64,000 nucleotides of DNA from Gammaproteobacteria bacterium. Lineage in GTDB: Bacteria; Pseudomonadota; Gammaproteobacteria; Eutrophobiales; Eutrophobiaceae. The DNA lies in contig JAURNY010000018.1 of assembly GCA_030829955.1 (NCBI GenBank), forward strand, positions 94,377 through 158,376. The letters run 5' to 3'. This document shows, in pieces, positions 28,944 through 64,000 of the stretch. Position 1 is the first letter of the stretch, and each line of letters begins with the position of its first letter. The translations under genes were made by a program, and so were the position numbers. The notes beneath the pieces are model-generated. The model made no database searches. It was not told the origin of the DNA and saw only the letters and a program-made list of their open reading frames with translations.

Positions 28944-28948
28944 AATAA

Positions 28949-30643: not shown

Positions 30644-30661
30644 AATTAAACCTGAATAAAA

Positions 30662-32161: not shown

Positions 32162-32205
32162 ATCTCTCTTCCTAACTCCTTATTCTTTACGCTTCATGAC
32201 TCAAT

Positions 32206-44731: not shown

Positions 44732-45091
44732 GTGATAAGTTTCAGTATGTTTTGGAAATAATTATTAAAGGGGCAATATCATCCTGTTAATATTGATGAA
44801 CTTGAAGTCTGGGCTCAGGAAACCGAACCACAAGTGGAAAAAGGTATTCGTTCAGTTGAAGGCAAATGGAGGGTTATACTGGCCTCATATGAAAACTAGC
44901 AGATCGTATTTCAACAGCAAAATCAAATATTACAAGTAGGTATGGCGATTGATATTGATCAGGAATATATTAATTAACAAGCTTGGTTTAGATTAGTGAT
45001 AGTAAGTTACAGAGCAGATGCAAGTTTATTTTAGATGAAATGAAATCTACTTATGGTTTTTGCCAGCCCGCGCATAAGTAAGCGATAATAT

Positions 45092-46441
45092 ATGACTGAT
45101 ACGAAACATAATAAAGAATTTGAATATGTGGCAGGTAATGGCTTATTAGATAGACGTTTGTTTTTAAAGCGCGGCATTCAGTTTGGAACTATTACTGCGC
45201 TTGCTTCAACCGTCACTCAACTATTACAAGCAGAAACTGAAACAGCATTTAATTCGGCACGTCCTCCCTGGATGACTCAACCCGGAAAACCATTTTCTTT
45301 GTACGGTAAACCATCCGAATTCGAGGATGATGTAGTCCGGTTCCCAACGCAAAATGAATCAGTTCTTGGCAATGGAGTTTCGTGGTCGCCACTTCATTTA
45401 ATGGAAGGCACGATTACACCAAACGGTTTACATTTCGAAAGACATCATAATGGCATACCGCAAATTGATCCTGCCAAACATAAATTATTAATTCATGGCA
45501 TGGTAAAGCAGGATCTTTTTTTCAGAATGGAAGATTTATACCGTTACCCCATGCAATCAAAGATTTGTTTTATCGAATGTGGCGGTAATAGTAATGCGGG
45601 TTGGAATAGTTCACCCTCGCGTAGTGAAGCAGGTTATTTTAATGGCATGGCATCAAATAGTGAATGGACAGGTGTGCCGTTAAAGGTGTTACTTGCAGAA
45701 GCGGGTTTGAAATCTTCTGCAAAATGGTTGATTGCCGAGGGTGCTGATGCCTTTAATATGCAGATGTCGATTCCAATTGAGAAAGCTATGGATGATGCAT
45801 TCCTTGCCATCTATCAAAACGGTGAAAAGATTCGTCCCGAGCAAGGTTATCCATTGCGTTTAATTGTTCCCGGTTGGGAAGGCGTATTAAATGTTAAATG
45901 GTTACGACGTTTGATGATTACTGATCGGCCTGTGATGGCAAGAAATGAAACATCGCGTTATACCGAATTACAACCCGATGGTAAGGCAAGACAATTTACA
46001 TTTTTTATTGAAGCTAAATCATTAATTACATCACCATCTGCCAATATGTTACTTAAACAACCGGGTCTTTATCAGATTACGGGTTTGGCATGGTCGGGTC
46101 GCGGCAAGATTAAAAAAGTCGATATCTCTGCTGATGATGGCAAAACCTGGGCAGAAGCAGAGTTACAACAACCCGTATTGGATCGTGCCTTCACCCGTTT
46201 TCGTTTGCCCTGGCAATGGAATGGTAAAAAGACAGTGATTAAGAGTCGTGCAATGGATGAAACAGGATATGTACAACCAGAACGAACCGAACTTATTAAA
46301 AAACGCGGTAAACATGGTTTTTATCATTACAATGCCATTACGAATTGGCAAATAGATGAAGATGGCTATGTTTCTCATGTCTATGATAAAAATGAAAATC
46401 AAACACTCTCTGACAATAGTATTGATAGCAGTTGGGATTAA
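45092..46441 (+). CDS. soxC: molybdopterin sulfite/sulfane dehydrogenase catalytic subunit (SoxC/SorA family), Tat-exported
   Basis: 449 aa. Twin-arginine signal (LDRRLFLKRG), sulfite-oxidase Moco domain and C-terminal dimerisation domain. Confidence 0.8.
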   Translation: MTDTKHNKEFEYVAGNGLLDRRLFLKRGIQFGTITALASTVTQLLQAETETAFNSARPPWMTQPGKPFSLYGKPSEFEDDVVRFPTQNESVLGNGVSWSPLHLMEGTITPNGLHFERHHNGIPQIDPAKHKLLIHGMVKQDLFFRMEDLYRYPMQSKICFIECGGNSNAGWNSSPSRSEAGYFNGMASNSEWTGVPLKVLLAEAGLKSSAKWLIAEGADAFNMQMSIPIEKAMDDAFLAIYQNGEKIRPEQGYPLRLIVPGWEGVLNVKWLRRLMITDRPVMARNETSRYTELQPDGKARQFTFFIEAKSLITSPSANMLLKQPGLYQITGLAWSGRGKIKKVDISADDGKTWAEAELQQPVLDRAFTRFRLPWQWNGKKTVIKSRAMDETGYVQPERTELIKKRGKHGFYHYNAITNWQIDEDGYVSHVYDKNENQTLSDNSIDSSWD

Positions 46442-46937
46442 TCTTGTCTTTGCAGAAACAATGCAAGGTCCAGGCTTAGGACATGCTGCGACTATTGACG
46501 AAGTCGCAAAATGGAATATCAGTGTTTTTCCTGATGGTGAAGGCTTACCAGAAGGAAGGGGCTCAGTTAGCGAAGGTGAGGTGGTTTACAATACACAATG
46601 TGTGGGGTGTCATGCTCAAGGTGGTATAGGTTCTGCAGTAGGTGATCAACTTGCTGGCGCACAAATGGAATTAACTAGTGATTATCCTGAAAAAACTATT
46701 GGCAAATATTGGCCTTATGCAACAACTGTGTTTGATGTTATTCGTCGATCTATGCCGATGACGACTCCCGGATCATTAACTGATAACGACGCGTATGCTG
46801 TGACGGCTTATCTTTTGTATTTGAATAATTTGATTGATGTGAATGCGGTGATAGATAAGTCATCCTTACCAAAGGTTAAGATGCCGAATGAAGATGGGTT
46901 TGTGAAAGTTTATGAAGTGAAGGAGACGAATAAATAG
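46392..46937 (+). CDS. mono-heme c-type cytochrome (SorB / short SoxD-like partner subunit)
   Basis: The track ORF starts at 46356 with a Met cluster. Proposed start is the internal ATG at 46392 (MKIKHSLTIVLIAVGINLVFA signal peptide). Single CVGCH heme motif. Overlaps the soxC 3' end. Confidence 0.65.
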   Translation: MKIKHSLTIVLIAVGINLVFAETMQGPGLGHAATIDEVAKWNISVFPDGEGLPEGRGSVSEGEVVYNTQCVGCHAQGGIGSAVGDQLAGAQMELTSDYPEKTIGKYWPYATTVFDVIRRSMPMTTPGSLTDNDAYAVTAYLLYLNNLIDVNAVIDKSSLPKVKMPNEDGFVKVYEVKETNK

Positions 46938-46980: not shown

Positions 46981-48072
46981 TTATTTACTCAATATCGATT
47001 TTAATGTGTCTATAAAACGTTTGACATCATCAGCAGTCATTTCGCCCATGCATGATATCCGGAACATGGCTTTAGCAAAGGCGCCTTGTCCTGCATAGAT
47101 AATAAAACCCGCTTCTTTCAGTTTGTCATGCAAGTTGTCATAACTAACATTTTCAGGCAAATGAAAGGCATTTAATACACATGATGATTCTTCTAACTCC
47201 ATATAAGGTTTAATTCCATTTTCAATTAAACCCTTTCTTACTTGATTCATACGTTGCCAATACAATTTATGCCTTGCTTGCCAACCGCCATTTTCGCTTA
47301 ATTCATCCAGTGCTTCAGCAAGAGCATAGAAGGTTTGTATCGATTGGGTAAATGGTGTGCCATTGGCATCCTGATTTTTTAAATAGGTCACTAAATCAAG
47401 ATAAAGTGTTCTGGCTGGTGTTGCAGACATTTGACTAATTCCTTCACGATTACCAATAACAAATGATGTGCCTGGCACGCCATGTAAACATTTGTTCGCC
47501 GTTGCTGCACAGGCTGCAAGGTTCCATTCATGAAACTTTATTTCTTCCGCACCAAAGCTACTCACAGCATCCAGTAAAATAGTGGCATTGCTATTATATT
47601 GTTTGCATAGCCTGGCAACAGCATCAATATCATTTAAGCGGCCACTTGTAGTTTCATGATGAACGATAGCGATGTGTGAAAACGCTTTTTCATAATTGAG
47701 TTCACCCTCGATAAGTTTTAGATCGAGAGACTGACCCCATTCATGATGAACAATTTTGTGATTGATACCATGTATTTTGGCAATTTTAGTAAGACGTTCA
47801 CCGTAAACCCCGTTTTCGATGATTAAAACCTTGCCATGTGCTGGCACAAAACTCGTCATCATCGCTTCCATAGCTGATGTGCCAGAGCCGGTAAATAGAA
47901 TACTTGCCCAATCTTTATTATCTAATTTATATACATCAAGTAAATCAGTGCGTATCTTGCTTTGTAATTCAATAAACTCCTGTTCACGATGACAAAGGTC
48001 GGGTTTTAACAATGCCTGCCGTACTCGTTCACTCAATACAACAGGACCGGGATTCATTAATATTTTTTTCAT
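46981..48072 (-). CDS. phnW: 2-aminoethylphosphonate:pyruvate aminotransferase
   Basis: 363 aa. Class V aminotransferase. Position downstream of ppd and ppm matches the canonical AEP biosynthetic operon. Confidence 0.8.
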   Translation of the reverse strand: MKKILMNPGPVVLSERVRQALLKPDLCHREQEFIELQSKIRTDLLDVYKLDNKDWASILFTGSGTSAMEAMMTSFVPAHGKVLIIENGVYGERLTKIAKIHGINHKIVHHEWGQSLDLKLIEGELNYEKAFSHIAIVHHETTSGRLNDIDAVARLCKQYNSNATILLDAVSSFGAEEIKFHEWNLAACAATANKCLHGVPGTSFVIGNREGISQMSATPARTLYLDLVTYLKNQDANGTPFTQSIQTFYALAEALDELSENGGWQARHKLYWQRMNQVRKGLIENGIKPYMELEESSCVLNAFHLPENVSYDNLHDKLKEAGFIIYAGQGAFAKAMFRISCMGEMTADDVKRFIDTLKSILSK

Positions 48073-49226
48073 TAGAACTTACTCCCTATCTGATGCATAG
48101 CACGTTGCAAAACTTCAACAGGTAGCACATCTGGTCGCGGCAAATCATCTATTGTACCCGCTTTGATCTTGATATGTCCGAAAGCAGGGCCTTCATTATT
48201 GGTTGAGGCAAATAGTTCATCAATGATTGATAATTGGTTACCTGAAAGACTAAGACCATAACCACTGGCTTCAGCAACTTTAGCAAAATCAATATTAGCC
48301 GCAACCGTTGCTTGTGCTCCGGTTGAGTCATGTACTTCATTATCCAGCAGGATATGAATCAAATTATTACCGGCATAACTACCAAGTGTTGCGAAGTTAC
48401 CCATACGCATTAAACCTGCACCATCACCATCTATGATGACCACTTTCAAATTAGGTCTTGCCAGCGCGACACCTAAACCAAGTGAAGAAGCGCAACCCAT
48501 TGAACCGACCATATAAATATGATTGTGTCGATCATCAATCGCATAAAGTTCTCGGCCAGTAAATCCAGTCGTAGCAATAACTAATGAATTGTTAATCGGA
48601 GTATGTTCAATGATCTTTTTTAAAACCGTATTTCGATCAGCAAGATCAATTTGTTCATCGAAAGAATACCGAAGTTCTTTTTTGCGATTGCGAATATCAG
48701 TAACCGGATTCTTTTTTAATATATTTTTTTTAACTGTACCTTTTTCCATAATAAAGGCATAAGGGCGTTGTTCTTTTTCCATATGGTCCATCGCACGTTT
48801 CAGCGCTGGTTGAATATCTTTCGCATCTTTGGGAAATATTTCCCATGGCACATGCATGAGATCAAATAATTTTTCTGTAATTTGACCCATCAGTTCATGT
48901 TGTGGTTCATCCTTTAAACCGAGTTGGCCTCGATGTGTAGTAATAATTAAAAAAGGAATTCGAAAGACATAGGATAATGATGTAATTGGACTAACTGCAT
49001 TCCCTAAACCGGAGTTTTGCATCATCACGATTGAACGCTGACCACCAATCGCAGCGCCTGCTGCAGTTGCTAATGCATCACCTTCGTTAGTAGATGAAAC
49101 ATATTCGAGAGAATCGTCATTAATGACGTAGTTTATAAAAGGTGTCAGGAAAGAGCAGGGGACGCCTGTATAACGTGTAAAACCCAGCTCGCGAGCAGCT
49201 TCGACAAATTCTTCAGCTTCGATCAT
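48072..49226 (-). CDS. ppd: phosphonopyruvate decarboxylase (TPP-dependent)
   Basis: 384 aa. TPP-binding motif [10 protein letters not shown]...NN...[10 protein letters not shown]. 1-nt and 4-nt overlaps with neighbouring genes. Confidence 0.85.
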
Positions 49227-50839
49227 GCTGTAAAATCACCTGCGCGATTAATATCATCCAGCGAATTAACATCCAGCCAATGTCCATCAATATAATGCAC
49301 ATTAATCGGTTTACCTTTTTCAATCAGATGATTGAGTAAATCAGGAATAGTGAGTTGATTAAAGTCATCGCGTTTGCGTAATTCCTTTAATGCTTTTGTA
49401 ATCCATTTTTTACCTTGTTTGCGAATACGCAGCATACCTATCCAGTAACCGGATGGTTTATTTCTGTCTGATTGGCGTGCTAGTTTTTTCAATAACACAT
49501 CCTGCATAAAGGGGTTTCGATCATCCTTCTTGCTACAAAAAGCAAGGTCAGGTGAACCGGAAAGATTAGGATTATCCAGTGCTGAATCGACAACTACTAC
49601 TATTTCCCCTGAGCTTTCGAGTAAATCACGCATAATATAACCACGGAATAACAGGTCGCCATAGAAAACCAGCATGTCATCACTAAAGTCTTTTTCTGCA
49701 CACGCGAATGATGTTAATTCATCAGAATTTTTAAATTGTTTATTAATGCGTTTATTAATGCCGGGAATATTGATTGCATTAGCTTTATAACCTGCAATAA
49801 CAGTCGTGTTATTAATACCCAGTTTTTTAAGTTCATCAATAGAACGGCGAAGTAATGTTTTTCCGCCAATATTAATCATTGTCTTGGGTTTATCCTCGGT
49901 CAGTTCATATAGTTCACTGCCACGACTCGCCGCAAGAACAATCGCATTAATATTTGACTGCTGACTTAGATATCGATCCTGTGCTTGTTTTAATTCATCT
50001 GCACCCTGTAATTCAAAGATATGATTAACTGTTGCAATTTGATCTTCCACATCCACTAATGATTCAAACTCAAAGATTTGGTTGCTAATTTTTTCCATCG
50101 CTGTAATTGATGCGCGAATCATATGATTTGCCCAGATCACCAGATTAATACCTGCTTCACGAAAGACATCGGTTGGGGTGCTGTAGTATTTGGTTGGTAC
50201 AATAACTAATGGACATCGCCCTGCCCATTCTTTTGCAAAGGCAAGCACTTCATCAGGGCGTGATAATTTACTATGAATTAAAATGCCATTAGCACCTGCT
50301 TTTCTATAAGCTTCCGCACGTTTTAATGCTTCATCCATTCCCCAGCCAGCAATCAGGGCTTCTACACGTGCAACAATACAAAAGTCATCATCACGCTGAC
50401 TATCTTTACCGGCTTTGATTTTGCCACAAAATTCATCAATATTTGCCAATGGTTGTTTCTCGCCATCGATAAAACTATTGGTTTTGGGAAATTGTTTATC
50501 TTCAATACAAACACCGGCGATATCACGTTGTTCAAGCTTCATTACCAGTCGTCGCATATTATTAAAGTTGCCATAACCGGTATCACCATCCAGCAATATC
50601 GGAATATTGGTGACATCCGACATAAACTCAAGCATGTCGACAACCTGTGTCCAACTGGCTTCATTACTATCACGCACACCAAATTGTGCCGACATGGATA
50701 AACCACTTCCCCAAACGCCTTTGAAACCGGCATTTTCAACAATACGTGCCGACATTCCGTTGTGTGCTTCCATAATGAATTCGAGCTTATTTGACTCGAG
50801 TAAATTACGCAGTTGTTTGGTTTTTTTTGTTTTAGCCAT
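49223..50839 (-). CDS. phosphoenolpyruvate phosphomutase fused to a C-terminal nucleotidyltransferase (PntC-like phosphonate cytidylyltransferase)
   Basis: 538 aa. Residues 1 to ~290 are Ppm/isocitrate-lyase superfamily ([11 protein letters not shown]...). Residues ~300-538 are a nucleotidyltransferase fold ([14 protein letters not shown]...GGKTLL). Confidence 0.8.
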
Positions 50840-50850
50840 TTAATTCGTTT

Positions 50851-51582
50851 TTATATGTTAGGTAATATTTCATTTTGGGCCCGTGTAATATCTTCCGGAA
50901 AATCTATTTCAATCCATGCCAGACTAGTGATGTCTTCAACTGAAAATTTTTCCGGTGCTTCTAGCAAGCAATCACGTATTGCTTCTTCATAAGGTATTGA
51001 TGAGTCATCTAGTTTTAAATAATCATCAATTTTATCAATCATCATTTGTGCGATATCGCGATTGAATTTGAAAAAACCCACTGATTCACCTTGAGTCTCA
51101 AATTTTAATGATGCATCAACTTTCTTTCTAAATTCATTGATATGACCGTTACTATCAATACAAACTTTCACCGGTTCATCACCAGGAATAAAATCTTTAT
51201 CAATTAATAAACAATTTTCATGAGTTGATTTTATCAGGCGTTTAAGAATGTCAGGGTGATAAAGTACATCGGCATCCATTAGTATCATGTTCTCATCCCT
51301 GACCATGATGTCTTTGGCATAGGCTAGACTAATCAAGCTGCCTTCCTGAAATCTCGGATTAAGAATGAAGTGTAAATTATTCTCTGTTTGTAAATGTGAC
51401 TGAATTACTTCGGCCTGATAACCGACGACTATAGTGATATCTTGAATGCCATTTTGCTTTAATAGTTTTATATGACGTTGCATCAGACTGATAGCGCCAA
51501 ACTCCATCAGTGATTTGGGCTTATTGTCTGCGGAAGAACCAAGTCGATTTCCCATACCCGCTGCCAGTATGATTGCCTGCAT
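50851..51582 (-). CDS. LicC-like sugar-phosphate/phospho-base nucleotidyltransferase (second, stand-alone)
   Basis: 243 aa. N-terminal MQAIILAAGMGNRLG (NTP-transferase G-loop). First gene of the AEP operon. Confidence 0.75.
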   Translation of the reverse strand: MQAIILAAGMGNRLGSSADNKPKSLMEFGAISLMQRHIKLLKQNGIQDITIVVGYQAEVIQSHLQTENNLHFILNPRFQEGSLISLAYAKDIMVRDENMILMDADVLYHPDILKRLIKSTHENCLLIDKDFIPGDEPVKVCIDSNGHINEFRKKVDASLKFETQGESVGFFKFNRDIAQMMIDKIDDYLKLDDSSIPYEEAIRDCLLEAPEKFSVEDITSLAWIEIDFPEDITRAQNEILPNI

Positions 51583-54397: not shown

Positions 54398-55846
54398 ATG
54401 TTGCTTAGCCCTATAATCCTTGCTGGTGGCGTTGGAACACGTCTTTGGCCACTTTCACGGGAACACTATCCAAAACAATTCATAAATCTGATTAATGAAA
54501 AATCCATGTTGCAAAACACTTTAAACCGTTTGCGAGGACTGGAGAATTCTATCGAGGTATCGTCGCCACTGATTGTTTGTAATGAAGTGCACCGTTTTCT
54601 GGTTGCAGATCAATGCGAAGAAATCCAACAATCTTTGGACTCAATCATTCTTGAAAGTGTTGGCCGTAATACAGCGCCGGCGTTAACTATTGCTGCGTTA
54701 AAACTCACTCAGGCACATGATGATGTAATGATGTTGATGATGCCGGCAGATCATGTCATTAAAAATATTGCCATATTTCAGCAAGCTATTTTAGTTGCCA
54801 GCAACTATGTAGAAAAAGATTATTTATTTACCTTTGGTATTTCACCTGATTATCCAGATACAGGTTACGGTTATATTCATTTTGACAAGGAAAAAGACAA
54901 AATTAATGATTTAACTGTTAATGCGGTTCTTGGTTTTAAAGAGAAACCTAATAAAGAAACGGCAAAGCAATATATCATTGCCGGTGATTATTTATGGAAT
55001 AGCGGTATCTTTATGATGAAAGCCTCTGTCTGGTTAAAAAAAATGGAACAATATAATCAGGATATAGTTACATCCTGTCGCGAAGCTATAAATAAAGGAG
55101 CAGTAGATAGTCAGTTTTTACGTCTTGATGCCAAAGCATTTGCAGATTGTCGAAGTGAATCCATTGATATTGGTGTCATGGAAAAATTACTGGCTGATTA
55201 CTCAGAACAAGTACTAACTATTCCTATCGACATGGGGTGGTCTGATATGGGTGCCTGGTCTTCGATATGGCAGCATGGTGAGAAAGATGCTAATAATAAC
55301 TGTGTGGATGAATATGCCTTGGCGATTGATACGAATAATAGTTTGATTAGATCTGACGGCAGGCTATTAGCTGTAATTGGTTGTGATGATCTAGTTATTG
55401 TCGATACCGCTGATGTCACACTGGTGGTAGATAAAAATAAAACTCAGGATGTTAAAAAGGCTGTAGAACAATTAAAAGCAAATAATCGTAGCGAATTCCT
55501 GGAGCATGTTGTTGTACATCGTCCTTGGGGAACATATCAATCAGTCGAACAAGGCGATAATTTTCAGGTTAAAAAAATTGTAGTCAAGCCAGGCAAAAAA
55601 CTTTCATTGCAAATGCATCATAAGCGCGCTGAACATTGGGTTGTTGTTAAAGGAATTGCAACAGTGACTCGTGATGATGATGTATTTGAATTAAAGGAAA
55701 ATGAATCAACCTTTATCCCACTAGGAGCAAAGCATCGTCTGGAAAATGCAACTTCTGAACCATTGGAGATAATCGAGGTTCAGTCCGGCAGTTATCTTGG
55801 TGAGGATGATATTGTTAGATTTGATGATGACTTCGGACGAAGTTAA
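54398..55846 (+). CDS. manC: bifunctional mannose-1-phosphate guanylyltransferase / mannose-6-phosphate isomerase
   Basis: 482 aa. N-terminal NTP-transferase (ILAGGVGTRLWPLS) and C-terminal cupin PMI domain (HHKRAEHWVVVKG). Confidence 0.88.
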   Translation: MLLSPIILAGGVGTRLWPLSREHYPKQFINLINEKSMLQNTLNRLRGLENSIEVSSPLIVCNEVHRFLVADQCEEIQQSLDSIILESVGRNTAPALTIAALKLTQAHDDVMMLMMPADHVIKNIAIFQQAILVASNYVEKDYLFTFGISPDYPDTGYGYIHFDKEKDKINDLTVNAVLGFKEKPNKETAKQYIIAGDYLWNSGIFMMKASVWLKKMEQYNQDIVTSCREAINKGAVDSQFLRLDAKAFADCRSESIDIGVMEKLLADYSEQVLTIPIDMGWSDMGAWSSIWQHGEKDANNNCVDEYALAIDTNNSLIRSDGRLLAVIGCDDLVIVDTADVTLVVDKNKTQDVKKAVEQLKANNRSEFLEHVVVHRPWGTYQSVEQGDNFQVKKIVVKPGKKLSLQMHHKRAEHWVVVKGIATVTRDDDVFELKENESTFIPLGAKHRLENATSEPLEIIEVQSGSYLGEDDIVRFDDDFGRS

Positions 55847-55860
55847 CCCTCTACAAAAAT

Positions 55861-56541
55861 ATGATTTCTATTGTTATTCCTGTATTAAATGAAGCAAAGG
55901 AAATCGAAACGCGATTAAAATCGTTTCAAAAGTTAAGACAAAACGGAAATGAAATAATTCTTGTTGATGGTGGAAGCTTAGATGATACTTTTCATTTAGC
56001 ACAAGTCTATGTAGATAAATCTCTGATAAGTAGTAAGGGTAGAGCCAGACAAATGAATGCCGGTGCTAGAGTTGCCGCTGGTGATTATTTATTATTTTTA
56101 CACCTTGATTCTCATCTTTCGACACAAGCATTGATTGATATAGCAGAGATAAACAGTCTATCTATCTGGGGTTTCTTCAGGATTAAATTAAGTGGTGAAG
56201 ATAAAGTGTTTCGCTTGATTGAAAGAATGATGAGTCTTCGTTCAAAATTTACATCTATTGCTACCGGTGATCAGGGACTATTTATCAGTAAGCAATTATT
56301 TGATGAAATTAATGGCTATCCAGATATTGAACTGATGGAAGATATTGCAATATGCAACATCTTGCGCAAGAAAAAAAAGCCGGTCATGTTAACTAATATA
56401 ATTACAACATCTTCTCGTCGATGGGAAAAACGGGGTGTGATTAAAACAATATTATTTATGTGGTGGTTACGCTTGCTTTATTTTGCAGGTGTGTCAGCAG
56501 ACTATCTTAATAAGTATTACTATCCTGAAGATAATGGATGA
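55861..56541 (+). CDS. family-2 glycosyltransferase (TIGR04283-like)
   Basis: 226 aa. GT2 N-terminus ISIVIPVLNE with a DGGS motif. Confidence 0.75.
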   Translation: MISIVIPVLNEAKEIETRLKSFQKLRQNGNEIILVDGGSLDDTFHLAQVYVDKSLISSKGRARQMNAGARVAAGDYLLFLHLDSHLSTQALIDIAEINSLSIWGFFRIKLSGEDKVFRLIERMMSLRSKFTSIATGDQGLFISKQLFDEINGYPDIELMEDIAICNILRKKKKPVMLTNIITTSSRRWEKRGVIKTILFMWWLRLLYFAGVSADYLNKYYYPEDNG

Positions 56542-57148
56542 TCTGTTAATCATCTTTAGTAAGTCTCCTGAAGCAGGCAAGGTGAAGACAAGACTCATGC
56601 CGTCGTATGGAAGAAGTTATAGTGCGACAATTCATCGCCGTTTGTTATGGCGAACATTGTCTGTTGCCAGACAATCGGACTTTTCTAATATAGAGTTGTG
56701 GGTTGGCGGTGATAGTAAACATCCGGAACTAGTAAGGATTTCTAAAGCATTTAATATGGATATTAATTATCAGCGAGGAAAAGATCTAGGCGAACGCATG
56801 TTTTATACAATCTCTCAATCACAGAAGCATTATAAGAATATAGTCTTAATAGGAACGGACTGTGCTGATTTGCAAGTAAAAGACTTAAATCTGGCTTTAC
56901 AGAAATTAACAAACAAGGTTGATGTTGTAATTGGACCTTCTAATGATGGTGGTTACTATCTGATTGGTATGAATTCAACATATCAGAAATTATTTGATGA
57001 TATTAACTGGGGAAGTGATGAGGTTTTGCAGCAAACTAGGCGAAATATTGAAAAATTAAAATTAAATTTATCAGAATTAAACCAGAGAAATGATGTTGAT
57101 GAAGAGCATGAAGTGGAAACGTATGTATTAAATTCTGATACTTATTAG
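56537..57148 (+). CDS. DUF2064 (TIGR04282-like) glycosyltransferase-associated protein
   Basis: The track ORF starts at 56483, but the likely start is the ATG at 56537 (MDDLLIIFSKSPEAGKVKTRL), overlapping the GT2 stop (ATGGATGA). DUF2064 pattern. Confidence 0.65.
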   Translation, partial: DDLLIIFSKSPEAGKVKTRLMPSYGRSYSATIHRRLLWRTLSVARQSDFSNIELWVGGDSKHPELVRISKAFNMDINYQRGKDLGERMFYTISQSQKHYKNIVLIGTDCADLQVKDLNLALQKLTNKVDVVIGPSNDGGYYLIGMNSTYQKLFDDINWGSDEVLQQTRRNIEKLKLNLSELNQRNDVDEEHEVETYVLNSDTY

Positions 57149-57583: not shown

Positions 57584-58570
57584 TTATTGATAATCGTGTT
57601 CTTTAAACCAGTTGATTGCATCAATTAATCCTTTAGTTCCGGCTCTAGGATTATATCCCAGTATTGTTTTTGCTTTTTCACTTGTGAAATACATTTTTTT
57701 CTTCGCCATCAACACACTATCTACAGTTATGCGGGTTGACTTGCCGGTGATAGCGGCTATGCGCTCCATGCACCATGCGATTGGAATAATGAGATTATGA
57801 GGAAGTTGTATGCTAGGTGGATCAATATCTTCATGCAGACATATAAATTCCAGAATTGATGCTAATGTCATATTATCTCCTCCCAATATATAACGCTCAC
57901 CAATTTCACCTTTTTCCATTGCCAGTAAATGGCCTTCGGCAACATCATCTACGTGAACAATATTTAATCCGGTATCAACATAGGCAGGCATACGATGTTG
58001 AATAGTATCAAGCACAATCAAACCCGTTGGTGTCGGTTTAATATCGCCGGGTCCAACAGGTGTTGAAGGGTTTACAATCGTAATGGGCGCGGATTCTTTT
58101 TTTATTATTTCCTTTACTGATTCTTCTGCCAGATATTTTGAACGTTTATAATGCCCCTGCATATCGTCAAGCGTTGAAGGAGTAGTTTCATCAGCAGGTG
58201 TACCATCATCGTGCACCCCTAATACTGCCACACTACTGGTGTATACGATCTTGCTAATGGACTGTTCCAGCGCAGCCATCATTAATGCTTTGGTGCCATC
58301 AACATTTGTTTTATACATATTTTTTGGATCAGGGATCCAGAGCCGATAATCAGCAGCAATATGAAATAGATGATCACATCCTTTAACAGCTCGTTTCAAA
58401 GAAGGCTGGTCAAGTAAATCAGCTTCGATTACTTCCGTGTTAAGGTTGGAAAAGTTACGTTTATCTGACCCTTTGCGAACCATGGCACGAACTTCATAGC
58501 CCTTATTGAGCAATAATTTCAATACAGCAGAGCCAATAAAGCCATTTGCACCTGTGATTAATATTTTCAT
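57584..58570 (-). CDS. hpnA: NAD-dependent epimerase/dehydratase (hopanoid-associated sugar epimerase HpnA-like)
   Basis: 328 aa. Rossmann motif ILITGANGFIGS and a YxxxK catalytic motif. Adjacent to hpnN in the shc operon. The symbol is assigned from context. Confidence 0.65.
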   Translation of the reverse strand: MKILITGANGFIGSAVLKLLLNKGYEVRAMVRKGSDKRNFSNLNTEVIEADLLDQPSLKRAVKGCDHLFHIAADYRLWIPDPKNMYKTNVDGTKALMMAALEQSISKIVYTSSVAVLGVHDDGTPADETTPSTLDDMQGHYKRSKYLAEESVKEIIKKESAPITIVNPSTPVGPGDIKPTPTGLIVLDTIQHRMPAYVDTGLNIVHVDDVAEGHLLAMEKGEIGERYILGGDNMTLASILEFICLHEDIDPPSIQLPHNLIIPIAWCMERIAAITGKSTRITVDSVLMAKKKMYFTSEKAKTILGYNPRAGTKGLIDAINWFKEHDYQ

Positions 58571-58571
58571 A

Positions 58572-61157
58572 TTAATGTTGCTGTCTTTCTTCCAGCCAGA
58601 TTAGAAAAGAGGGTAATACGATAACTGTTGCGAACATCATACATAACAAACCAATAGTCAGCATAATCCCCATGCTTGCTGTGCCAGCATGCTTTGAAAA
58701 GGCAAGGCTGCCGATACTGAAAATGGTGGTAAATGAACTGACCAATACGCCCCTGAATGCACTGGTTAAAAATAGATTTTTATCGTTTGCTTGATCTTCA
58801 CGAAAACGATTTACGATATGAATACCACTATCTACACCAATGCCAAGTAATAATGGTAATCCAATAATGTTAGCAAAATTTATGGGTTGATTAATCAACG
58901 CCATAGATGCCATAGAAAATAAGCTTCCAGTAAATAATGTGCCAAGGATTAATACGACATCAACTTTAGATTTAATAAGTATTAATAAAATTATTGTGAT
59001 GGCAATTAGTGCATAAAGTATTGCAGACTGGAATGACTTAATAACGGCAGCCCCAGCTTCAACATTGACAACAGGGGGGCCAATGATGGCATCGTCATGC
59101 TTTTGTAGTTCTCTAACAAACTCAATCATGGCATCATGATCATTGAGGTCTTTTTCCGGATATATTTCGAGTTTATAAAAACCTTTTTTATACCATCTGG
59201 CCTTGATTTCATCAGGCACATCAGATAATTCAACATTGGTAGCGGCAAGACCTGTTTCCAATAAATTGATGCTGTCAACAAAGTAATATAGTAAACGTTT
59301 TTCAATATCAATTAATTCTATCGGGTGATTAACCAAATATTCTAATTTTTTTTGTAAGTCAATTATTTGATCATTTTTCATCTCCAAAGGATACTGCTTC
59401 AACATGGATAATAAATTGTTAGTAATTTTTAAACGTTCATCATTTTTTATTGCCACACTTGATTGTGTCGGTAAAAGTGGACCCATCAAAATATTTAGAT
59501 CATCGACTATGAATAATTTCCCTTCTTGATTTTTGGGTACCAGATCATTTAGCCAGACAACATTGTTTACAATATCTATTGCTTCAAATTGTGATTTGGC
59601 GAGTTCAGCTCTAGCTTTATCTTTTTCCAATGTAACTACAAACCATGGAGAGGTTTCCTTATCTTTTAATAAATCCTGAAAGGTTTTAACTGATTCATTG
59701 TTCTGGTCTTGAAGATTAAGTGTGTTGCTATCAAATCGTAAATGATTGAGCGAAAAGCTTGCGACAATGATTAATATAGCCGTAATTACCAATATGGATT
59801 TATAGTTTTTATAAGGTAATTCACTTAAATAAAGTTTAATCTTCTCTGATGATGTACTTTTATCGGTTGCATCAGTTTTTTTCTCAAAACTTAGCAAGGC
59901 CGGTAGTAAGGTGAACGTATAAAATAAACTGACGAGCATGCCACAACCTGCTATCCAGCCAAGTTCCGCAACCCCTTGATAATCGGTAGGCATAAATGAA
60001 TAAAAGCCAATAGAAGTAGTTAATGCACATAAAAACAAGGTTCTGAAAATATTAATTGCGGCAAATCTTAATGCACTTTGTGTATTAAGATTATCTTTCT
60101 GAACCTCTCTAAAACGTAGGCATAAATGAATAGCAAAGTCGATTCCCAAACCAATATATAAAACTGCAAAGGCGACTGAAATAAGATTTAATACGCCGAC
60201 TGTGAACGCAGCCAAAGCAGTGGTGGCGATAAGACCTAGAATCAAAGTGATAATAGAGGAGAAAAATAACCATAATGAACGAAGTCCAATAATCAGCATG
60301 ATTGCCACCAAAATAATCGATGCGAGGATGGCAATAACATTTGCTTCGGCAACACTCTTTAATTCTTCATAAGCCAGAGCGGCGTTGCCACTTAGGCGAA
60401 TAGATGTTTTTCCTCCATCTTCCAGCCCAAGCCTATTAACTGTGTCATTGATATATCGAATAGCTATTTCGCCAGGCAGTAATTCATCCGGGTCTTTCAG
60501 TATTTTTGTAATAATAAATTCACGATAAACAGATTTATTTTTTGTGTCAGCTTGTAATAATGTTTGCCAGGAAAGACGATGCTCTTTTTCTTTGAGTGTT
60601 TTATTAAGTTCTGATAGGAGAATTGATAAATCAATTTCTTCACCATCTGCTTTTGCCACGAACACCTGCTCAAGCATATTAAAAAAACCACGGAGTGATT
60701 GATCAGATAATAAAGTACCTATAAATGGTTGTATTTTGGTAAGACGATTGGATAAATCATATAACTCATCTTCAGTCATAAAGAGAAATGCTGTTTCACG
60801 AAAAAAGGAAATCGCAGAAGGGAAATATATATCTTCGATCAAATAAGGTGACGCTTTCAAAGATGTATAAAGTTTCGTTGCATCCTCACGCGCCCTGTCA
60901 GGGGTGTCTGCCTCAATTACGATCAGAACATTATCAAGCGTTTCAGTAAATATATCCTCATACTTAATATCAAGCTGTCGCCATTTTAGATCTCTAGACA
61001 ACATATCTCTAGTGTCAGTGGTCATGCCAAGATGATTGACGATTAACCAGAGCGATAAGAGAGTAATTAAAGCAATTAAAACAAATACACCAAAACGAAA
61101 GCGCTGAATTATGGTGATCCAGCGTTCGATAAGATGGCTTATGCGATTATTATTCAT
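58572..61157 (-). CDS. hpnN: RND/MMPL-family hopanoid transporter HpnN-like
   Basis: 861 aa. Two sets of 6 TM helices, each preceded by a large periplasmic loop (RND/SSD architecture). Located in the shc operon. Confidence 0.75.
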   Translation of the reverse strand: MNNNRISHLIERWITIIQRFRFGVFVLIALITLLSLWLIVNHLGMTTDTRDMLSRDLKWRQLDIKYEDIFTETLDNVLIVIEADTPDRAREDATKLYTSLKASPYLIEDIYFPSAISFFRETAFLFMTEDELYDLSNRLTKIQPFIGTLLSDQSLRGFFNMLEQVFVAKADGEEIDLSILLSELNKTLKEKEHRLSWQTLLQADTKNKSVYREFIITKILKDPDELLPGEIAIRYINDTVNRLGLEDGGKTSIRLSGNAALAYEELKSVAEANVIAILASIILVAIMLIIGLRSLWLFFSSIITLILGLIATTALAAFTVGVLNLISVAFAVLYIGLGIDFAIHLCLRFREVQKDNLNTQSALRFAAINIFRTLFLCALTTSIGFYSFMPTDYQGVAELGWIAGCGMLVSLFYTFTLLPALLSFEKKTDATDKSTSSEKIKLYLSELPYKNYKSILVITAILIIVASFSLNHLRFDSNTLNLQDQNNESVKTFQDLLKDKETSPWFVVTLEKDKARAELAKSQFEAIDIVNNVVWLNDLVPKNQEGKLFIVDDLNILMGPLLPTQSSVAIKNDERLKITNNLLSMLKQYPLEMKNDQIIDLQKKLEYLVNHPIELIDIEKRLLYYFVDSINLLETGLAATNVELSDVPDEIKARWYKKGFYKLEIYPEKDLNDHDAMIEFVRELQKHDDAIIGPPVVNVEAGAAVIKSFQSAILYALIAITIILLILIKSKVDVVLILGTLFTGSLFSMASMALINQPINFANIIGLPLLLGIGVDSGIHIVNRFREDQANDKNLFLTSAFRGVLVSSFTTIFSIGSLAFSKHAGTASMGIMLTIGLLCMMFATVIVLPSFLIWLEERQQH

Positions 61158-61181
61158 TTATAAATGAATATGTCGATAAAA

Positions 61182-61928
61182 TTAAACGCGAAAGACGTAT
61201 TCTTTATCAGTCAGACGTTCGATATCCGGAGGATAGCTTAATCTTTTGTCATCATAATATTTACGACGTTTGTCACCTTCAGCAGCAGCATTATATGTCA
61301 CGTATAAAACACGTCGTTTATCGTTGGTTAGATTTGGCCCAGAGCGATGAGGCACAAATGAATCAAAGAAAACAGCATCGCCTGGTTGAGTTGGAATAGA
61401 TTCATAATCAAGTGAATTTTCTTCCAGTGGCTTCCATTTTTCTCCGATCAATCCTCTATCGTGGTATCCGCCTGCCATTTCAAGACAGCCGTTTTCGATA
61501 GTGGAGGCATCTATACTTATCAGAGCGGTGATATGTAATTTGCCATATTTATCCCAGCCAGCCTGAACATCCTGATGAGCTTTAAAACCATCTCCGCCCG
61601 GCATTTTGAAGTTGATTTTGTCTTTAAATAATACAGAGTCATCATGAAATAATTGAGATGTGATCTGTTGAATTTCACTTTTGGTAAATAACTCACTAAA
61701 GCCTGCATGATAAGGTTCAATGTCTTCCATACGGGAGAGGATGCGTCGATTATTGTCGAGTCTACTCTGTTCAAAATACATCATGTATTTTCCGGGGACT
61801 TCCGGATAGTTTGTTACTTCATCTGTCCATGCAGTAATTTTTTTCATGGTTTCTGCGCCATAAAGTCCGCGGATAACCAGATAGCCGGATGATTTAAATT
61901 GTTCAATCTGTTCGTTACTTAATTCCAT
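61182..61928 (-). CDS. phytanoyl-CoA dioxygenase (PhyH)-family Fe(II)/2-oxoglutarate oxygenase
   Basis: 248 aa. PhyH-like fold with an HxD...H facial triad (HQDVQ ... PHRSGPN). Confidence 0.7.
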   Translation of the reverse strand: MELSNEQIEQFKSSGYLVIRGLYGAETMKKITAWTDEVTNYPEVPGKYMMYFEQSRLDNNRRILSRMEDIEPYHAGFSELFTKSEIQQITSQLFHDDSVLFKDKINFKMPGGDGFKAHQDVQAGWDKYGKLHITALISIDASTIENGCLEMAGGYHDRGLIGEKWKPLEENSLDYESIPTQPGDAVFFDSFVPHRSGPNLTNDKRRVLYVTYNAAAEGDKRRKYYDDKRLSYPPDIERLTDKEYVFRV

Positions 61929-61951
61929 ATTTGTATATTTATAAAGATTAA

Positions 61952-62674
61952 CTAAGGTTGCATATTATAGAGAAAATGCCTGTCTTTTAAATCGGGCGCA
62001 ATAAGTTTCATAGTGTTTATCGCTTTTTTAAAAGCCCGTGCCAATATTAATAATGATGGAATCTGTGCTGGATTAAATATACAGGATAATACAAAACTTA
62101 TTGGCTTGGGCTTACCAAGATGATCAGTATGTTTGATGACAGCTGCAGGTATTGCCGCTATTGCTTCATCACATATGGTTCTGATTGCGATAAAATCCAG
62201 TTCCATCTCCTTTGCAAGTCCTGCAATAGCAGCACTTTCCATATCAACAGCATCGGCACCAGATTGTTGATGCAGTTTTACTTTGTCTCTTGGTGATGAA
62301 CAAATAATTTCATCAGAATAGATTGAGCTGCTAACAATACGATAACTATCTGAACTTAAATGTATTAAACATTGTTCTTGCCAATGGGCACTACATGGGT
62401 ACTCATTATCATTAGAAATAATTTTATCTGCGATAATAATATCACCTGAATGTAATCCTTCATTTAATCCGCCTGCTACTCCCCAGCTAACTAGCGCTTC
62501 GGCCCCTTGCTTGATTAATAACGCAGCGGCATGTAACGCACGATCATGACCGATGCCACTTAGGCATAACAACATATTATCGTTAAGAGAACAGGGCGTA
62601 TTTAGTGTTAACGAATGGGGTACAAGACATGCCGCTTCATCCGGCAAGGCTGCGATGATGCCTATCTTTTTCAA
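61952..62674 (-). CDS. hpnG: hopanoid-associated phosphorylase HpnG (PNP/UDP nucleosidase family)
   Basis: PNP_UDP_1 fold (IGIIAALPDEAA...SWGVAGGL...DMESAAIA). The track ORF reaches 62788, but that overlaps the shc 3' end by 118 nt. A TTG at 62674-62672 overlaps the shc stop (TTGA) and is the more likely coupled start, though uncertain. Confidence 0.65.
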   Translation of the reverse strand: MKKIGIIAALPDEAACLVPHSLTLNTPCSLNDNMLLCLSGIGHDRALHAAALLIKQGAEALVSWGVAGGLNEGLHSGDIIIADKIISNDNEYPCSAHWQEQCLIHLSSDSYRIVSSSIYSDEIICSSPRDKVKLHQQSGADAVDMESAAIAGLAKEMELDFIAIRTICDEAIAAIPAAVIKHTDHLGKPKPISFVLSCIFNPAQIPSLLILARAFKKAINTMKLIAPDLKDRHFLYNMQP

Positions 62675-64000
62675 GATGCTACTTGAGTTAGATTGCGGTA
62701 TCGAGCTAATGCCCAAAGCGGAAAATATTTGGTGTAACCGTGATATTTTAGATAGAACACACGTGGAAAGCCTGGGGCAGTATACCACTCATCATGCCAT
62801 TGACCATCAGCGCCCTGATTATTAATCAAATGTTGTATACCGCGTTTAACGGTTTCAGTATTGGCTTCACCAACAGCCAGTAATGCTAACAAGGCCCAGG
62901 CTGTCTGAAATGCTGTGCTGGGAAATGGCCGTTTGTGTCTTGGTGGATAATAACTCTCATTGCTTTCACCCCAACCACCATCTTCGTTTTGCATATCTTG
63001 TAAATAGGTAACCGCATTACAAATGTATTCCTGCCGTGGGTCTTCTTCTGCAATTTCTAATGCAGTTAATACTGACCAGGTACCATAAATATAGTTAGTG
63101 CCCCATCGACCAAACCAAGAACCATCTATTTCCTGTTCAGTTTTTAAATATTGAATAGCATCCTGAATATTTTTTGCATATTTATCTTTATCAGCGAGTG
63201 TCATTAACGCAATCGAGCGACCTGTGACATCTGCTGTTGGTGGGTCGAGTAATGCACCATGATCGGCAAATGGAATTGAATTTAGATAATATTGGGTATT
63301 ATTCACTTCAAATGAGCCAAAACCACCACCTTTTGATTGCATACCCGCGACCCATTTAGCCGCACGTTGAATAGGTTCTGCATATTTATCCTTACAAGAG
63401 CGATGCATTGCCCACGCGACCATTGATGTGTCATCTAAATCAGGATAATAATAATTACTATATTGAAACGCCCAGCCTCCGCCTTCAAGTTTAGGGCGAG
63501 GAATACGCCAATCTCCAGGTTCATCTTTCAATTGACGTTCTTTCAACCAGTCCAATGCATTTTCAATTTCCTGACTGCAATTTTTATCGGTTTCAATCAA
63601 TGCCTGACTGGCAAGACAAGTATCCCAAACGGGTGAGACACAAGGTTGACAATACATACTGCCATCCATGCGTTTAACTAATAAGTTATCTATGGCTTTT
63701 CTAGCTTTAACAACATGCGGATGATCTTTCGGATAACCAAGTACAATTAATGATTCATAAACATTAACCATCGCCGGAAATATACCCCCTATACCATGTT
63801 CTTCATTCATTCTTTCAATAAACCAACGTTTACAACGACGAATGGAATAGCAACGCACGAAACGCGGGACTAATTTCTCAACAACACGACCAATATGATC
63901 CAGAACCAGAAAGTAGCGACCCAGCATGGTTTTGATCTTGAAATAATTTTGTTCGCTTTCAGGTGGTACTACAAAGAGTTCGCGAATATCAATACCACGT
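62671..64000 (-). CDS. shc: squalene-hopene cyclase, partial; N-terminus lies beyond the window end
   Basis: QW motifs and a terpene-cyclase C-terminal domain (GGWGESNESY..., DGSWFGRWG). The minus-strand frame stays open upstream of the 63927 Met to position 64000. Confidence 0.9.
   Translation of the reverse strand, partial: RGIDIRELFVVPPESEQNYFKIKTMLGRYFLVLDHIGRVVEKLVPRFVRCYSIRRCKRWFIERMNEEHGIGGIFPAMVNVYESLIVLGYPKDHPHVVKARKAIDNLLVKRMDGSMYCQPCVSPVWDTCLASQALIETDKNCSQEIENALDWLKERQLKDEPGDWRIPRPKLEGGGWAFQYSNYYYPDLDDTSMVAWAMHRSCKDKYAEPIQRAAKWVAGMQSKGGGFGSFEVNNTQYYLNSIPFADHGALLDPPTADVTGRSIALMTLADKDKYAKNIQDAIQYLKTEQEIDGSWFGRWGTNYIYGTWSVLTALEIAEEDPRQEYICNAVTYLQDMQNEDGGWGESNESYYPPRHKRPFPSTAFQTAWALLALLAVGEANTETVKRGIQHLINNQGADGQWHDEWYTAPGFPRVFYLKYHGYTKYFPLWALARYRNLTQVAS

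Follow-up and report, generated by a model that had tools for sequence, protein, structure and literature searches.

A PhnY*-like oxygenase in a conserved hopanoid operon suggests a possible link between hopanoid and phosphonate lipid pathways

Results

The window, by which we mean the whole 64-kb stretch of DNA analysed, carries a PhyH-family Fe(II)/2-oxoglutarate oxygenase gene between hpnG and hpnN of a hopanoid operon, a placement that is conserved among relatives. Hopanoid genes and genes for 2-aminoethylphosphonate (AEP) synthesis also occur together in relatives and have repeatedly become physically fused. Judged by its sequence affinities, the oxygenase falls in the PhnY*-like branch of PhyH, whose members oxidise the phosphonate alpha carbon. 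Since it resembles an AEP hydroxylase and the window itself appears able to make AEP, the pathways for hopanoids and phosphonate lipids may be connected, a link without prior description in the literature searched. The reading that we favour, with modest confidence, is that the oxygenase hydroxylates C-1 of the AEP moiety within a pathway for lipid head groups that is tied into the synthesis and export of hopanoids.

Structure of the hopanoid operon

Five tightly packed genes on the minus strand, in the 5′ to 3′ order shc, hpnG, oxygenase, hpnN and hpnA and with successive junctions of -4, 23, 24 and 1 nt, make up the operon that the first-pass annotation had described, and profile scores bore out its family assignment for each of them. 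The squalene-hopene cyclase gene shc (62671..64000) runs off the window, its frame being open up to base 64000 with no stop before the edge; the C-terminal ~442 codons present contain SQHop_cyclase_C and _N domains, and this C-terminal two thirds of the protein scored 519 bits against TIGR01507 (cut-off 431). Elsewhere, the same contig carries the complete gene, which encodes 648 aa and has an SQS_PSY gene ahead of it; this uncultured gammaproteobacterium occurs in metagenome assemblies of ENA, JGI, NCBI and Logan. The hpnG-like nucleosidase/phosphorylase gene (61952..62674, 240 aa from TTG 62674) matched PNP_UDP_1 with 91.7 bits and TIGR03468 (HpnG) with 167.7 bits, slightly below the cut-off of 187.1. 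It is followed by the oxygenase gene (61182..61928, 248 aa), by hpnN, which encodes an RND/MMPL-type hopanoid transporter (58572..61157, 861 aa; TIGR03480, 823.9 bits, cut-off 751.85), and by hpnA, which encodes a hopanoid-associated SDR/epimerase-family protein (57584..58570, 328 aa; TIGR03466, 474.6 bits, cut-off 367.65). No hpnH was found in the 64-kb window, and when this gene was sought as an N-terminal CxxxCxxC protein none was found within 10 kb across 80 loci. Promoter and terminator scans of 46.5–64 kb returned sites no commoner than in shuffled sequence and were thus uninformative on operon boundaries.

The shc stop codon (TGA, 62673–62671) overlaps a TTG (62674–62672) to give TTGA, and the earlier suggestion that hpnG starts at this TTG (MKKIGIIAALPDEA) agrees with the N-termini of its orthologues. 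HpnG orthologues all start 2–3 residues ahead of the conserved strand IGII, and this holds also where the ATG start is unambiguous (as in MNRIGII); gene callers give a 240 aa hpnG with the same 4-nt overlap in two relatives (L004 and L097). The alternative, longest hpnG ORF does overlap shc by 118 nt, as had been noted; its description as a first-ATG ORF was incorrect, as it opens with GTG at 62788 and the first in-frame ATG (62575) lies downstream. In this organism's own contigs callers took an ATG, yielding a 207 aa product from which the conserved first strand is lost.

Family, active site and fold of the oxygenase

The 248-aa protein scored 78.7 bits against PF05721 (cut-off 22), residues 11–207 covering profile positions 1–213 of 213. 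Its best curated match was NF052437, the PhnY*-type methylphosphonate hydroxylase family (197.7 bits, residues 2–240), with the next-best curated family reaching only 27.6 bits and none of the hopanoid-associated NCBIfam models matching. The NF052437 score is far under the equivalog cut-off of 500, which places the oxygenase outside the equivalog, so that its substrate could differ. Several close homologues bear the KO-based JGI label '2-aminoethylphosphonate dioxygenase'.

The predicted iron triad (H118, D120 and H194) and the 2-oxoglutarate arginine (R205, ~11 residues past the distal His) were invariant in alignments of 18 and 54 sequences, which disposes of the reservation that the protein might lack a 2-His-1-carboxylate triad. 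These residues align with motifs HQD and PHSSVPN in proline hydroxylase H11, whose structure is solved, and residues K102, K104, N106, K108, E53, E68, R206, R221 and Y224 are common to the hopanoid-linked proteins and a PhnZ-linked relative. An AlphaFold2 model (pLDDT 87, pTM 0.88) has the PhyH-type double-stranded beta-helix fold, and Foldseek matched it to H11, PHYHD1, GriE, SnoN, EctD and human PhyH (TM 0.65–0.74), the closest solved folds being hydroxylases of small free amino acids. Foldseek and a profile search of PDB sequences recovered generic PhyH-family enzymes only, with no PhnY*-type structure among them; the model therefore supports the fold and cannot settle the substrate. PhnY* (EC 1.14.11.46) and the Gimesia maris methylphosphonate hydroxylase (NF052437) have the same PhyH-type fold, His-Asp-His triad and many of the same charged residues, whereas the oxygenase differs from PhnY* in scoring below the family cut-off, in having no PhnZ partner and in occupying a biosynthetic rather than a catabolic context.

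Conservation of the oxygenase in hopanoid loci

Synteny was assessed in 80 genomes with an orthologue of the oxygenase (58–81% identity). The gene directly upstream was hpnG at 67 of 73 evaluable loci and the gene directly downstream was hpnN at 61 of 71, both flanking the oxygenase in 56 of the 65 loci that were fully evaluable. Some hpn gene was near the oxygenase at 75/80 genome loci, so the suspicion that PhyH homologues in other organisms would be unlinked to hopanoid genes proved unfounded. This order has been kept while HpnG and HpnN diverged to 28–59% and 36–58% identity, respectively, and the oxygenase is far more constantly adjacent to hpnG and hpnN than to AEP genes. Synteny across orthologues of such divergence supports a functional placement of the oxygenase between hpnG and hpnN. 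The coupling of hopanoid and AEP genes was found in more than 70 genomes, mostly of uncultured Gammaproteobacteria, and also in Pelomicrobium sp. G1, whose record is not labelled as a MAG.

As in canonical hpn clusters (shc/hpnF, hpnG, hpnH, hpnN, hpnA, hpnL, hpnM), shc, hpnG, hpnN and hpnA form a tight operon here, to which relatives add SQS, hpnL, hpnI/J/K-like genes and hpnH. Unlike the loci considered here, the hpn clusters described in PMC12583986 and found by literature searches contain no PhyH-type oxygenase, CDP-alcohol phosphotransferase or AEP genes. A PhyH oxygenase is indeed not a recognised hpn gene, being absent from that 2025 survey, and we found no paper linking PhyH with hopanoids. 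Searches combining hopanoids with PhyH, phytanoyl-CoA dioxygenase, pepM or phosphonates returned one exception, a study of acidophilic Acetobacteraceae in which PepM, decarboxylase and aminotransferase genes lie near terpenoid genes and whose authors speculate on a 'terpene-phosphonate' (PMC8776678). That system is set apart by its description, which concerns another phylum-level lineage and includes neither the oxygenase nor hopanoid transport genes.

The AEP operon and phosphonate contexts among relatives

A complete AEP operon, overlooked at first reading, occupies 46981–51582 on the minus strand, ~6 kb beyond hpnA. Its first gene (50851..51582) encodes a 243 aa PntC-like nucleotidyl (cytidylyl) transferase with NTP_transf_3 and NTP_transferase domains, sharing 42–48% identity with nucleotidyltransferases encoded ahead of PepM in four relatives (L056, L077, L082 and L084), and this PntC-first gene order recurs in relatives. 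There follow a PepM-PntC fusion of PEP mutase and a C-terminal nucleotidyltransferase (49223..50839, 538 aa; Pfam PEP_mutase and NTP_transf_3), which shows 56–64% tblastn identity to PepM fusions whose representative scored 370.6 bits on TIGR02320 (cut-off 319.55); phosphonopyruvate decarboxylase, Ppd (48072..49226, 384 aa, 51–59% identity; relatives' representative 411.8 bits, TIGR03297); and 2-aminoethylphosphonate aminotransferase, AEPT (46981..48072, 363 aa, 47–55% identity; relatives' representative 403.1 bits, TIGR03301). The GT2 (TIGR04283), DUF2064 (TIGR04282) and ManC genes between the two clusters were considered as possible transfer enzymes and set aside; neighbourhood clustering did not recover them as a shared gene family at any other orthologue locus.

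Among relatives the hopanoid and AEP sets are joined to varying degrees. One locus (L056) is a one-strand supercluster of SQS, Shc, HpnG, oxygenase, HpnN, HpnA, HpnL, PntC, PepM, Ppd and AEPT, and the two sets are also contiguous in L082 and L078. Operons of the Pelomicrobium type run CDP-OH transferase, oxygenase, PntC, PepM-PntC, Ppd, AEPT, HpnL, MlaC and HpnN, the first two genes overlapping by 4 nt, and in L097 genes for HpnL, a CDP-OH transferase, a PntC-like protein and HpnH adjoin the hopanoid cluster. A CDP-alcohol phosphotransferase homologue lies near hopanoid genes at 37/80 genome loci, and also in L095, L097 and L098. All four of the large contigs that could be checked carry both sets, the match being indirect for P0223 and L027. 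The AEP operon lies ~1 Mb from the oxygenase in two complete chromosomes, within a range of 0.1–1 Mb in relatives. That the oxygenase keeps its place beside hpnG and hpnN with the AEP operon at such distances suggests that the head-group pathway is functionally coupled to hopanoid synthesis or export.

Other relatives of the oxygenase occur apart from hopanoid genes. Lysobacterales orthologues (59–61% identity) branch from within the hopanoid-linked clade, and their genes belong to PepM-Ppd-AEPT clusters that contain LPS-type genes and lack hpn genes. These clusters hold YejM-like, heptosyltransferase-like and Kdo-kinase-like genes, of which the latter two were assigned by reading the sequences and not by family search. 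An alphaproteobacterial subclade, ~63–66% identical to the Pelomicrobium protein, is found in a context without AEP or hopanoid genes. More distantly, a Rhizobium rhizogenes relative (39% identity) lies between a cytidylyltransferase and LicD, and a relative on a Dietzia plasmid (36% identity) is directly followed by an HD-domain protein, which is the PhnY*/PhnZ arrangement. Neither the window nor any of the orthologue loci retrieved gave a tblastn match to the PhnZ-like protein encoded beside the Dietzia copy.

Discussion

On the reading that we favour, AEP would be made by the operon at 46981–51582 (PntC, PepM-PntC, Ppd and AEPT) and activated by PntC to CMP-AEP, from which, in many relatives, the CDP-alcohol phosphotransferase of the hopanoid cluster would move it onto a lipid alcohol. 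The oxygenase would convert AEP to 1-hydroxy-AEP, acting on free AEP, CMP-AEP or AEP esterified to lipid, and HpnL, HpnM and HpnN would carry the product to the outer membrane. A more tentative extension, to which we give distinctly less credence, is a composite lipid or 'phosphono-hopanoid' with an AEP or 1-hydroxy-AEP head group esterified to bacteriohopanepolyol, formed through PntC, the CDP-alcohol phosphotransferase and the oxygenase and flipped and exported by HpnL/HpnM/HpnN. Several points count against the favoured reading: the NF052437 score under its cut-off, the more constant tie of the oxygenase to hpnG and hpnN than to AEP genes, the lack of a cluster-type transferase in the window, the alphaproteobacterial subclade with neither gene set nearby, and the failure to find hpnH in the window or within 10 kb in the 80 loci. 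The genes mirror the published Group 1 phosphonolipid core, which comprises Ppm-PntC, Ppd, AEPT, PntC, a 2-oxoglutarate/Fe oxygenase and phospholipid genes and has been predicted to yield 1-hydroxy-AEP lipids (PMC8942020). Likened by gene set, this core (Burkholderiales_CDP-OH; Yu et al. 2013; Li and Horsman 2022) is matched by the Pelomicrobium-type operons and split in two in the window, where Ppm-PntC, Ppd, AEPT and a second PntC were found but a cluster-type CDP-alcohol phosphotransferase homologue was not. What sets our loci apart from Group 1 clusters is the position of the oxygenase within a hopanoid operon, together with co-operonic HpnL, HpnM and HpnN.

CDP-alcohol phosphotransferases usually take diacylglycerol-type acceptors, and an unlikely alternative is that the oxygenase forms 1-hydroxy-AEP destined for ordinary acceptors (diacylglycerol or sphingolipid phosphonolipids, LPS or glycans), with the hopanoid link reflecting co-regulation or shared export and no covalent product. 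The Lysobacterales clusters, in which the oxygenase and AEP genes are joined with YejM-, heptosyltransferase- and Kdo-kinase-like genes in place of hpn genes, are in keeping with such acceptors, as are the predicted Burkholderiales phosphonolipid clusters (PMC8942020) and the lack of a cluster-type CDP-alcohol phosphotransferase in the 64-kb window of this lineage. Ordinary acceptors would nevertheless leave unexplained why it is only the oxygenase, and not the AEP operon as a whole, that holds a fixed position between hpnG and hpnN, and why HpnL, MlaC and HpnN are co-operonic with AEP genes.

This fixed position would also fit an oxygenase that acts on the hopanoid skeleton, for example by C-31/C-30 hydroxylation of bacteriohopanetetrol to the pentol or hexol, or by modifying ribosylhopane, the HpnG product. 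Fe/2-oxoglutarate enzymes are capable of hydroxylating unactivated CH2 groups, the place of the oxygenase is near-invariant (67/73 and 61/71), and it keeps with hpn genes even where the AEP operon is 0.1–1 Mb distant; the genes for pentol and hexol formation have also not been identified to date (PMC12583986). We nonetheless consider a hopanoid substrate slightly less likely still than ordinary acceptors. The specific sequence affinity of the oxygenase is to phosphonate alpha-hydroxylases, its conserved charged residues are common to a PhnZ-linked relative, and its nearest solved folds hydroxylate small free amino acids. Moreover, orthologues nested in the same clade reside in AEP/LPS clusters without hpn genes, and in Pelomicrobium-type operons the gene shares 4 nt with that of a CDP-alcohol phosphotransferase and has the PntC and PepM genes after it. 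The first-pass proposal that the enzyme hydroxylates or otherwise tailors the hopanoid side chain or ring is thus not the best supported, given the PhnY*-like branch, the orthologues in AEP clusters and the AEP operon in the window.

The KO-based names and the likeness to a PhnZ-linked protein would suit a catabolic PhnY* that begins phosphate scavenging by oxidising AEP from the environment, but we reject this as very improbable, since the window and the orthologue loci yielded no PhnZ homologue; AEP biosynthesis genes are present in the same genome, and the neighbours of the oxygenase are lipid-synthesis and export genes. Chance adjacency to functionally unlinked neighbours is scarcely credible, being contradicted by the same gene order at 56/65 loci despite HpnG/HpnN divergence and by junctions of 23–24 nt.

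The results also bear on annotation: homologues of this gene are named as the catabolic 2-aminoethylphosphonate dioxygenase, although their clade lacks a PhnZ partner and its gene neighbourhoods are biosynthetic. Among bacterial membrane lipids, hopanoids are a major class and serve as geological biomarkers; to our knowledge, hpnA, hpnL and hpnM have no assigned role, and neither do several steps in side-chain formation have an assigned gene. Phosphonates make up a large part of marine dissolved organic phosphorus, and their cellular carriers are poorly known. The conserved genetic coupling of the two pathways offers a concrete hypothesis within reach of mass spectrometry and 31P NMR, and if the MAG lineages that carry these clusters are abundant in the sea, phosphono-hopanoids could represent lipid-bound marine phosphonate that has gone unrecognised, as well as a bacteriohopanepolyol class that has yet to be assigned.

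Organisation of the hopanoid operon and the start of hpnG

The hopanoid operon consists of five closely packed genes, all on the minus strand, with junctions of −4, 23, 24 and 1 nt: shc (62671 to beyond 64000; TIGR01507, 519 bits against a cut-off of 431), in whose frame no stop codon precedes the window edge; an hpnG-like nucleosidase gene (61952–62674; TIGR03468, 167.7 bits, below the cut-off of 187.1); the gene for a 248-aa PhyH-family oxygenase (61182–61928; PF05721, 78.7 bits against 22); hpnN (58572–61157; TIGR03480, 824 bits against 752); and hpnA (57584–58570; TIGR03466, 475 bits against 368). GC content is even across the region (0.35–0.43). Longer metagenome contigs encoding an identical oxygenase protein in the same gene order carry a squalene/phytoene-synthase-family gene (SQS) and a full 648-aa shc upstream of the cluster. 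No hpnH was found in the window, nor, as an N-terminal CxxxCxxC protein, within 10 kb in the loci of the 80 relatives described below.

The in-frame start candidates for hpnG are GTG 62788, TTG 62716, TTG 62674, TTG 62647 and ATG 62575. In approximately 58 loci the hpnG orthologues all start 2–3 residues ahead of a conserved IGII-x-AL-P-x-EA strand, several of them with an unambiguous ATG (e.g. MNRIGII), and this type of N-terminus is reproduced solely by TTG 62674 (MKKIGIIAALPDEA). In relatives the gene has been called at 240 aa, and there too it overlaps shc by 4 nt. Comparison with orthologue N-termini, together with these calls, thus argues for the TTG start proposed in the first-pass annotation, although no strong Shine-Dalgarno sequence precedes it. 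The 118-nt overlap with shc noted there belongs to the longest ORF, which starts with GTG at 62788, and not to a first-ATG ORF. Automated annotation shortens genes on the contigs of this organism: the ATG chosen by gene callers gives a 207-aa hpnG that has lost the conserved first strand, and in one NCBI record the oxygenase is cut to 200 aa, hpnA to 177 aa and hpnN to 328 aa.

Conservation of the oxygenase and its hopanoid context

Alignments of 18 and 54 homologues show residues H118, D120, H194 and R205 of the oxygenase to be invariant, and the four residues line up with iron and 2-oxoglutarate motifs in a proline hydroxylase of solved structure. AlphaFold2 gives a confident model (pLDDT 87, pTM 0.88), and this predicted fold superposes on PhyH-family enzymes with a TM of approximately 0.7. 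One genome per species was scanned, nearly all of the genomes compared being MAGs; this gave 415 relatives, of which the best 80 (58–81% identity) were used for locus counts by tblastn of the window's proteins. We found hpnG directly upstream of the oxygenase in 67/73 evaluable loci and hpnN directly downstream in 61/71, with both in 56 of the 65 loci evaluable for the pair; at least one hpn gene lay nearby in 75/80. Across these loci the oxygenase is the most conserved of the three proteins, as HpnG is only 28–59% and HpnN 36–58% identical. The adjacency of oxygenase and hpn genes is not due to chance. Loss of the 2-His-1-carboxylate triad, or an absence of linkage between PhyH homologues of other organisms and hopanoid genes, had been named in the first-pass annotation as observations that would count against its reading; neither was seen, because the triad (H118, D120, H194) is invariant and the hpn synteny recurrent.

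Hopanoid and phosphonate genes in the window and in relatives

The window also contains a complete operon for 2-aminoethylphosphonate (AEP), located by tblastn with relatives' proteins and not connected with the hopanoid operon in the first-pass annotation. Its genes, all on the minus strand, encode a PntC-like protein (50851–51582), a PepM-PntC fusion (49223–50839), Ppd (48072–49226) and AEPT (46981–48072), and are predicted to provide AEP synthesis; the operon lies approximately 10 kb from the oxygenase gene. Past the window edge, a contig of the same organism (L085, 1–5891) carries, as do L005–L028 of this lineage, a polyketide/PUFA-synthase-like gene of >2200 aa with KS, AT, ACP, KR and DH domains, alongside an NMO/FabD-insert gene and divergently upstream of SQS-shc; PUFA-type, hopanoid and phosphonate membrane-lipid pathways are therefore clustered in one genome.

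Between the AEP operon and hpnA, and divergent from the latter, three plus-strand genes (54398–57148) encode a GMP/PMI-type mannose-1-phosphate guanylyltransferase (ManC), a GT2 glycosyltransferase (TIGR04283, 254 bits) and a DUF2064 protein (TIGR04282, 197 bits), the last two families being labelled 'arsenosugar biosynthesis glycosyltransferase' by NCBI; neighbourhood clustering found no gene family shared between this trio and other orthologue loci. Plus-strand genes at 43889–46937, adjoining the AEP operon, encode a fused SoxY-SoxZ, then a molybdopterin sulfite-dehydrogenase-like protein and then a cytochrome c, the latter two syntenic with relatives in L089–L091. A Tad/Flp-type pilus cluster (25420–38601, minus strand) comprises TadE/TadG-like genes, two T2SSF genes, a T2SSE ATPase with an FHA domain, a secretin and RcpC; within it are a DUF3659-repeat protein of 704 aa that has an RcpC domain, and two ORFs without a Pfam match (34977–36754).

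Neighbourhood clustering of the 80 loci, with families named using NCBIfam, identified three recurring additions to the hopanoid genes. The first is a CDP-alcohol phosphotransferase-family gene, matched by tblastn in 37/80 loci and mostly placed between hpnN and hpnA; tblastn found no homologue of it in the 64-kb window. The second is hpnL, and the third is a set comprising a fusion of PEP mutase (PepM) with a nucleotidyltransferase (TIGR02320, 371 bits), the phosphonopyruvate decarboxylase Ppd (TIGR03297, 412 bits), the AEP aminotransferase AEPT (TIGR03301, 403 bits) and a PntC-like nucleotidyltransferase encoded by its own gene. Five loci (L031, L032, L034, L038 and L050) have hpnI/J/K-like genes (GT2, B12-radical SAM, YdjC) directly followed by a second, divergent CDP-alcohol phosphotransferase-family copy, which shares 27–40% identity with the hpnN-adjacent copy in those loci where each of the two had a match.

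The two gene sets are fully merged in L056, where SQS, Shc, HpnG, oxygenase, HpnN, HpnA, HpnL, PntC, PepM, Ppd and AEPT are encoded on one strand within 15 kb, and L082 and L078 are arranged similarly. On an Ectothiorhodospiraceae contig the genes for SQS, Shc, HpnG, the oxygenase, HpnN and HpnA are followed by those for HpnL, a CDP-alcohol phosphotransferase, a PntC-like protein, Dxs and HpnH (radical SAM plus DUF3463). In the Pelomicrobium-type order the CDP-alcohol phosphotransferase gene comes first and overlaps that of the oxygenase by 4 nt; after the oxygenase come the genes for PntC, PepM-PntC, Ppd, AEPT, HpnL (LPG_synthase_TM), an MlaC-family protein that we read as HpnM-like, and HpnN. 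In L095 (9369–20010), with SQS and a class III aminotransferase gene divergent upstream, and L098 (9390–19911), with hpnA convergent downstream, the genes for HpnL, the MlaC-family protein and HpnN are contiguous and co-directional with those for AEP synthesis, a hint that these transport proteins may handle a phosphonate-bearing lipid.

In the window's lineage both gene sets always occur together in the genome at varying distance: approximately 6 kb in the window (measured from hpnA), 100 kb in ERZ25067878 contig_40 and 1 Mb in two complete chromosomes (2.75 and 2.85 Mb). The oxygenase gene remains with hpnG and hpnN whatever the location of the AEP operon.

The five loci without an hpn gene come from Lysobacterales/Xanthomonadales MAGs (L080, L081, L083 and L084) and a Planctomycetota MAG (L076), and nest in the hopanoid-linked clade of a neighbour-joining tree calculated without support values. 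The oxygenase lies within a PepM-Ppd-AEPT cluster with LPS-type genes alongside in L081 and L084; genes of this cluster are downstream of it in L083, where the contig ends just upstream of the oxygenase. L076 and L080 yielded no AEP gene.

Affinity to phosphonate hydroxylases

The single strong curated match of the oxygenase is to PhnY*-type methylphosphonate hydroxylase (197.7 bits over the full length; next family 27.6 bits), a score below the model's cut-off of 500 that indicates affinity to this type and not membership. A Dietzia plasmid protein 36% identical to the oxygenase is directly followed by an HD-domain protein, as in the PhnY*/PhnZ arrangement, and a Rhizobium rhizogenes plasmid protein (39%) is encoded between a cytidylyltransferase and LicD. 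The hopanoid-linked proteins and the PhnZ-linked one have the non-catalytic residues E53, E68, K102, K104, N106, K108, R206, R221 and Y224, many of them charged, in common. An alphaproteobacterial subclade (L096, 1593–2360; L099, 10001–10768) is approximately 63–66% identical to the Pelomicrobium oxygenase, and for the L099 protein the PhnY*-type model is again the best match (193 bits). Genes adjoining this subclade encode an amidohydrolase, an M20 deacylase, an ADP-forming CoA ligase and a PRK07036-type aminotransferase; neither hopanoid genes nor PepM were seen near these oxygenases, which could have a different, perhaps catabolic, use.

Predicted role of the oxygenase

Judged from sequence affinity and gene context, the substrate of the oxygenase is probably a phosphonate rather than a hopanoid. 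A published 'Group 1 phosphonolipid' core of Ppm-PntC, Ppd, AEPT, PntC, a 2-oxoglutarate/Fe oxygenase and phospholipid genes is predicted to yield 1-hydroxy-AEP lipids (PMC8942020). Its gene content equals that found here. In the present loci, hopanoid genes surround the oxygenase gene and, in many genomes, the transferase gene too. All contexts are most simply covered if the oxygenase would hydroxylate the AEP moiety; (R)-1-hydroxy-AEP is known from nature (PMC8154272). It is possible that the enzyme instead hydroxylates the hopanoid directly, as the first reading suggested, since hpn adjacency is its most constant feature and no genes are known for pentol and hexol formation (PMC12583986), but this would leave the Lysobacterales and Pelomicrobium contexts and the family affinity unexplained. 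The functional placement of the oxygenase in the hopanoid operon is supported by conserved synteny, while the hopanoid as substrate is disfavoured by the PhnY*-type affinity and the AEP contexts. A catabolic role is unlikely because homology searches found no PhnZ homologue in the window or any orthologue locus.

A search of the hopanoid literature found neither the oxygenase nor a phosphonate link described, and the nearest precedent is one sentence noting that in some Acetobacteraceae PEP mutase and terpenoid genes are linked, 'suggesting an undiscovered terpene-phosphonate' (PMC8776678). What is new is the conserved hopanoid context of the PhnY*-like oxygenase and of the phosphonolipid-type pathway, both of which are of known kinds. 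With AEP hydroxylation as the preferred reading, the head-group pathway would be coupled to hopanoid synthesis or export, and the AEP acceptor may be a bacteriohopanepolyol, or else an ordinary lipid that only shares the export route.
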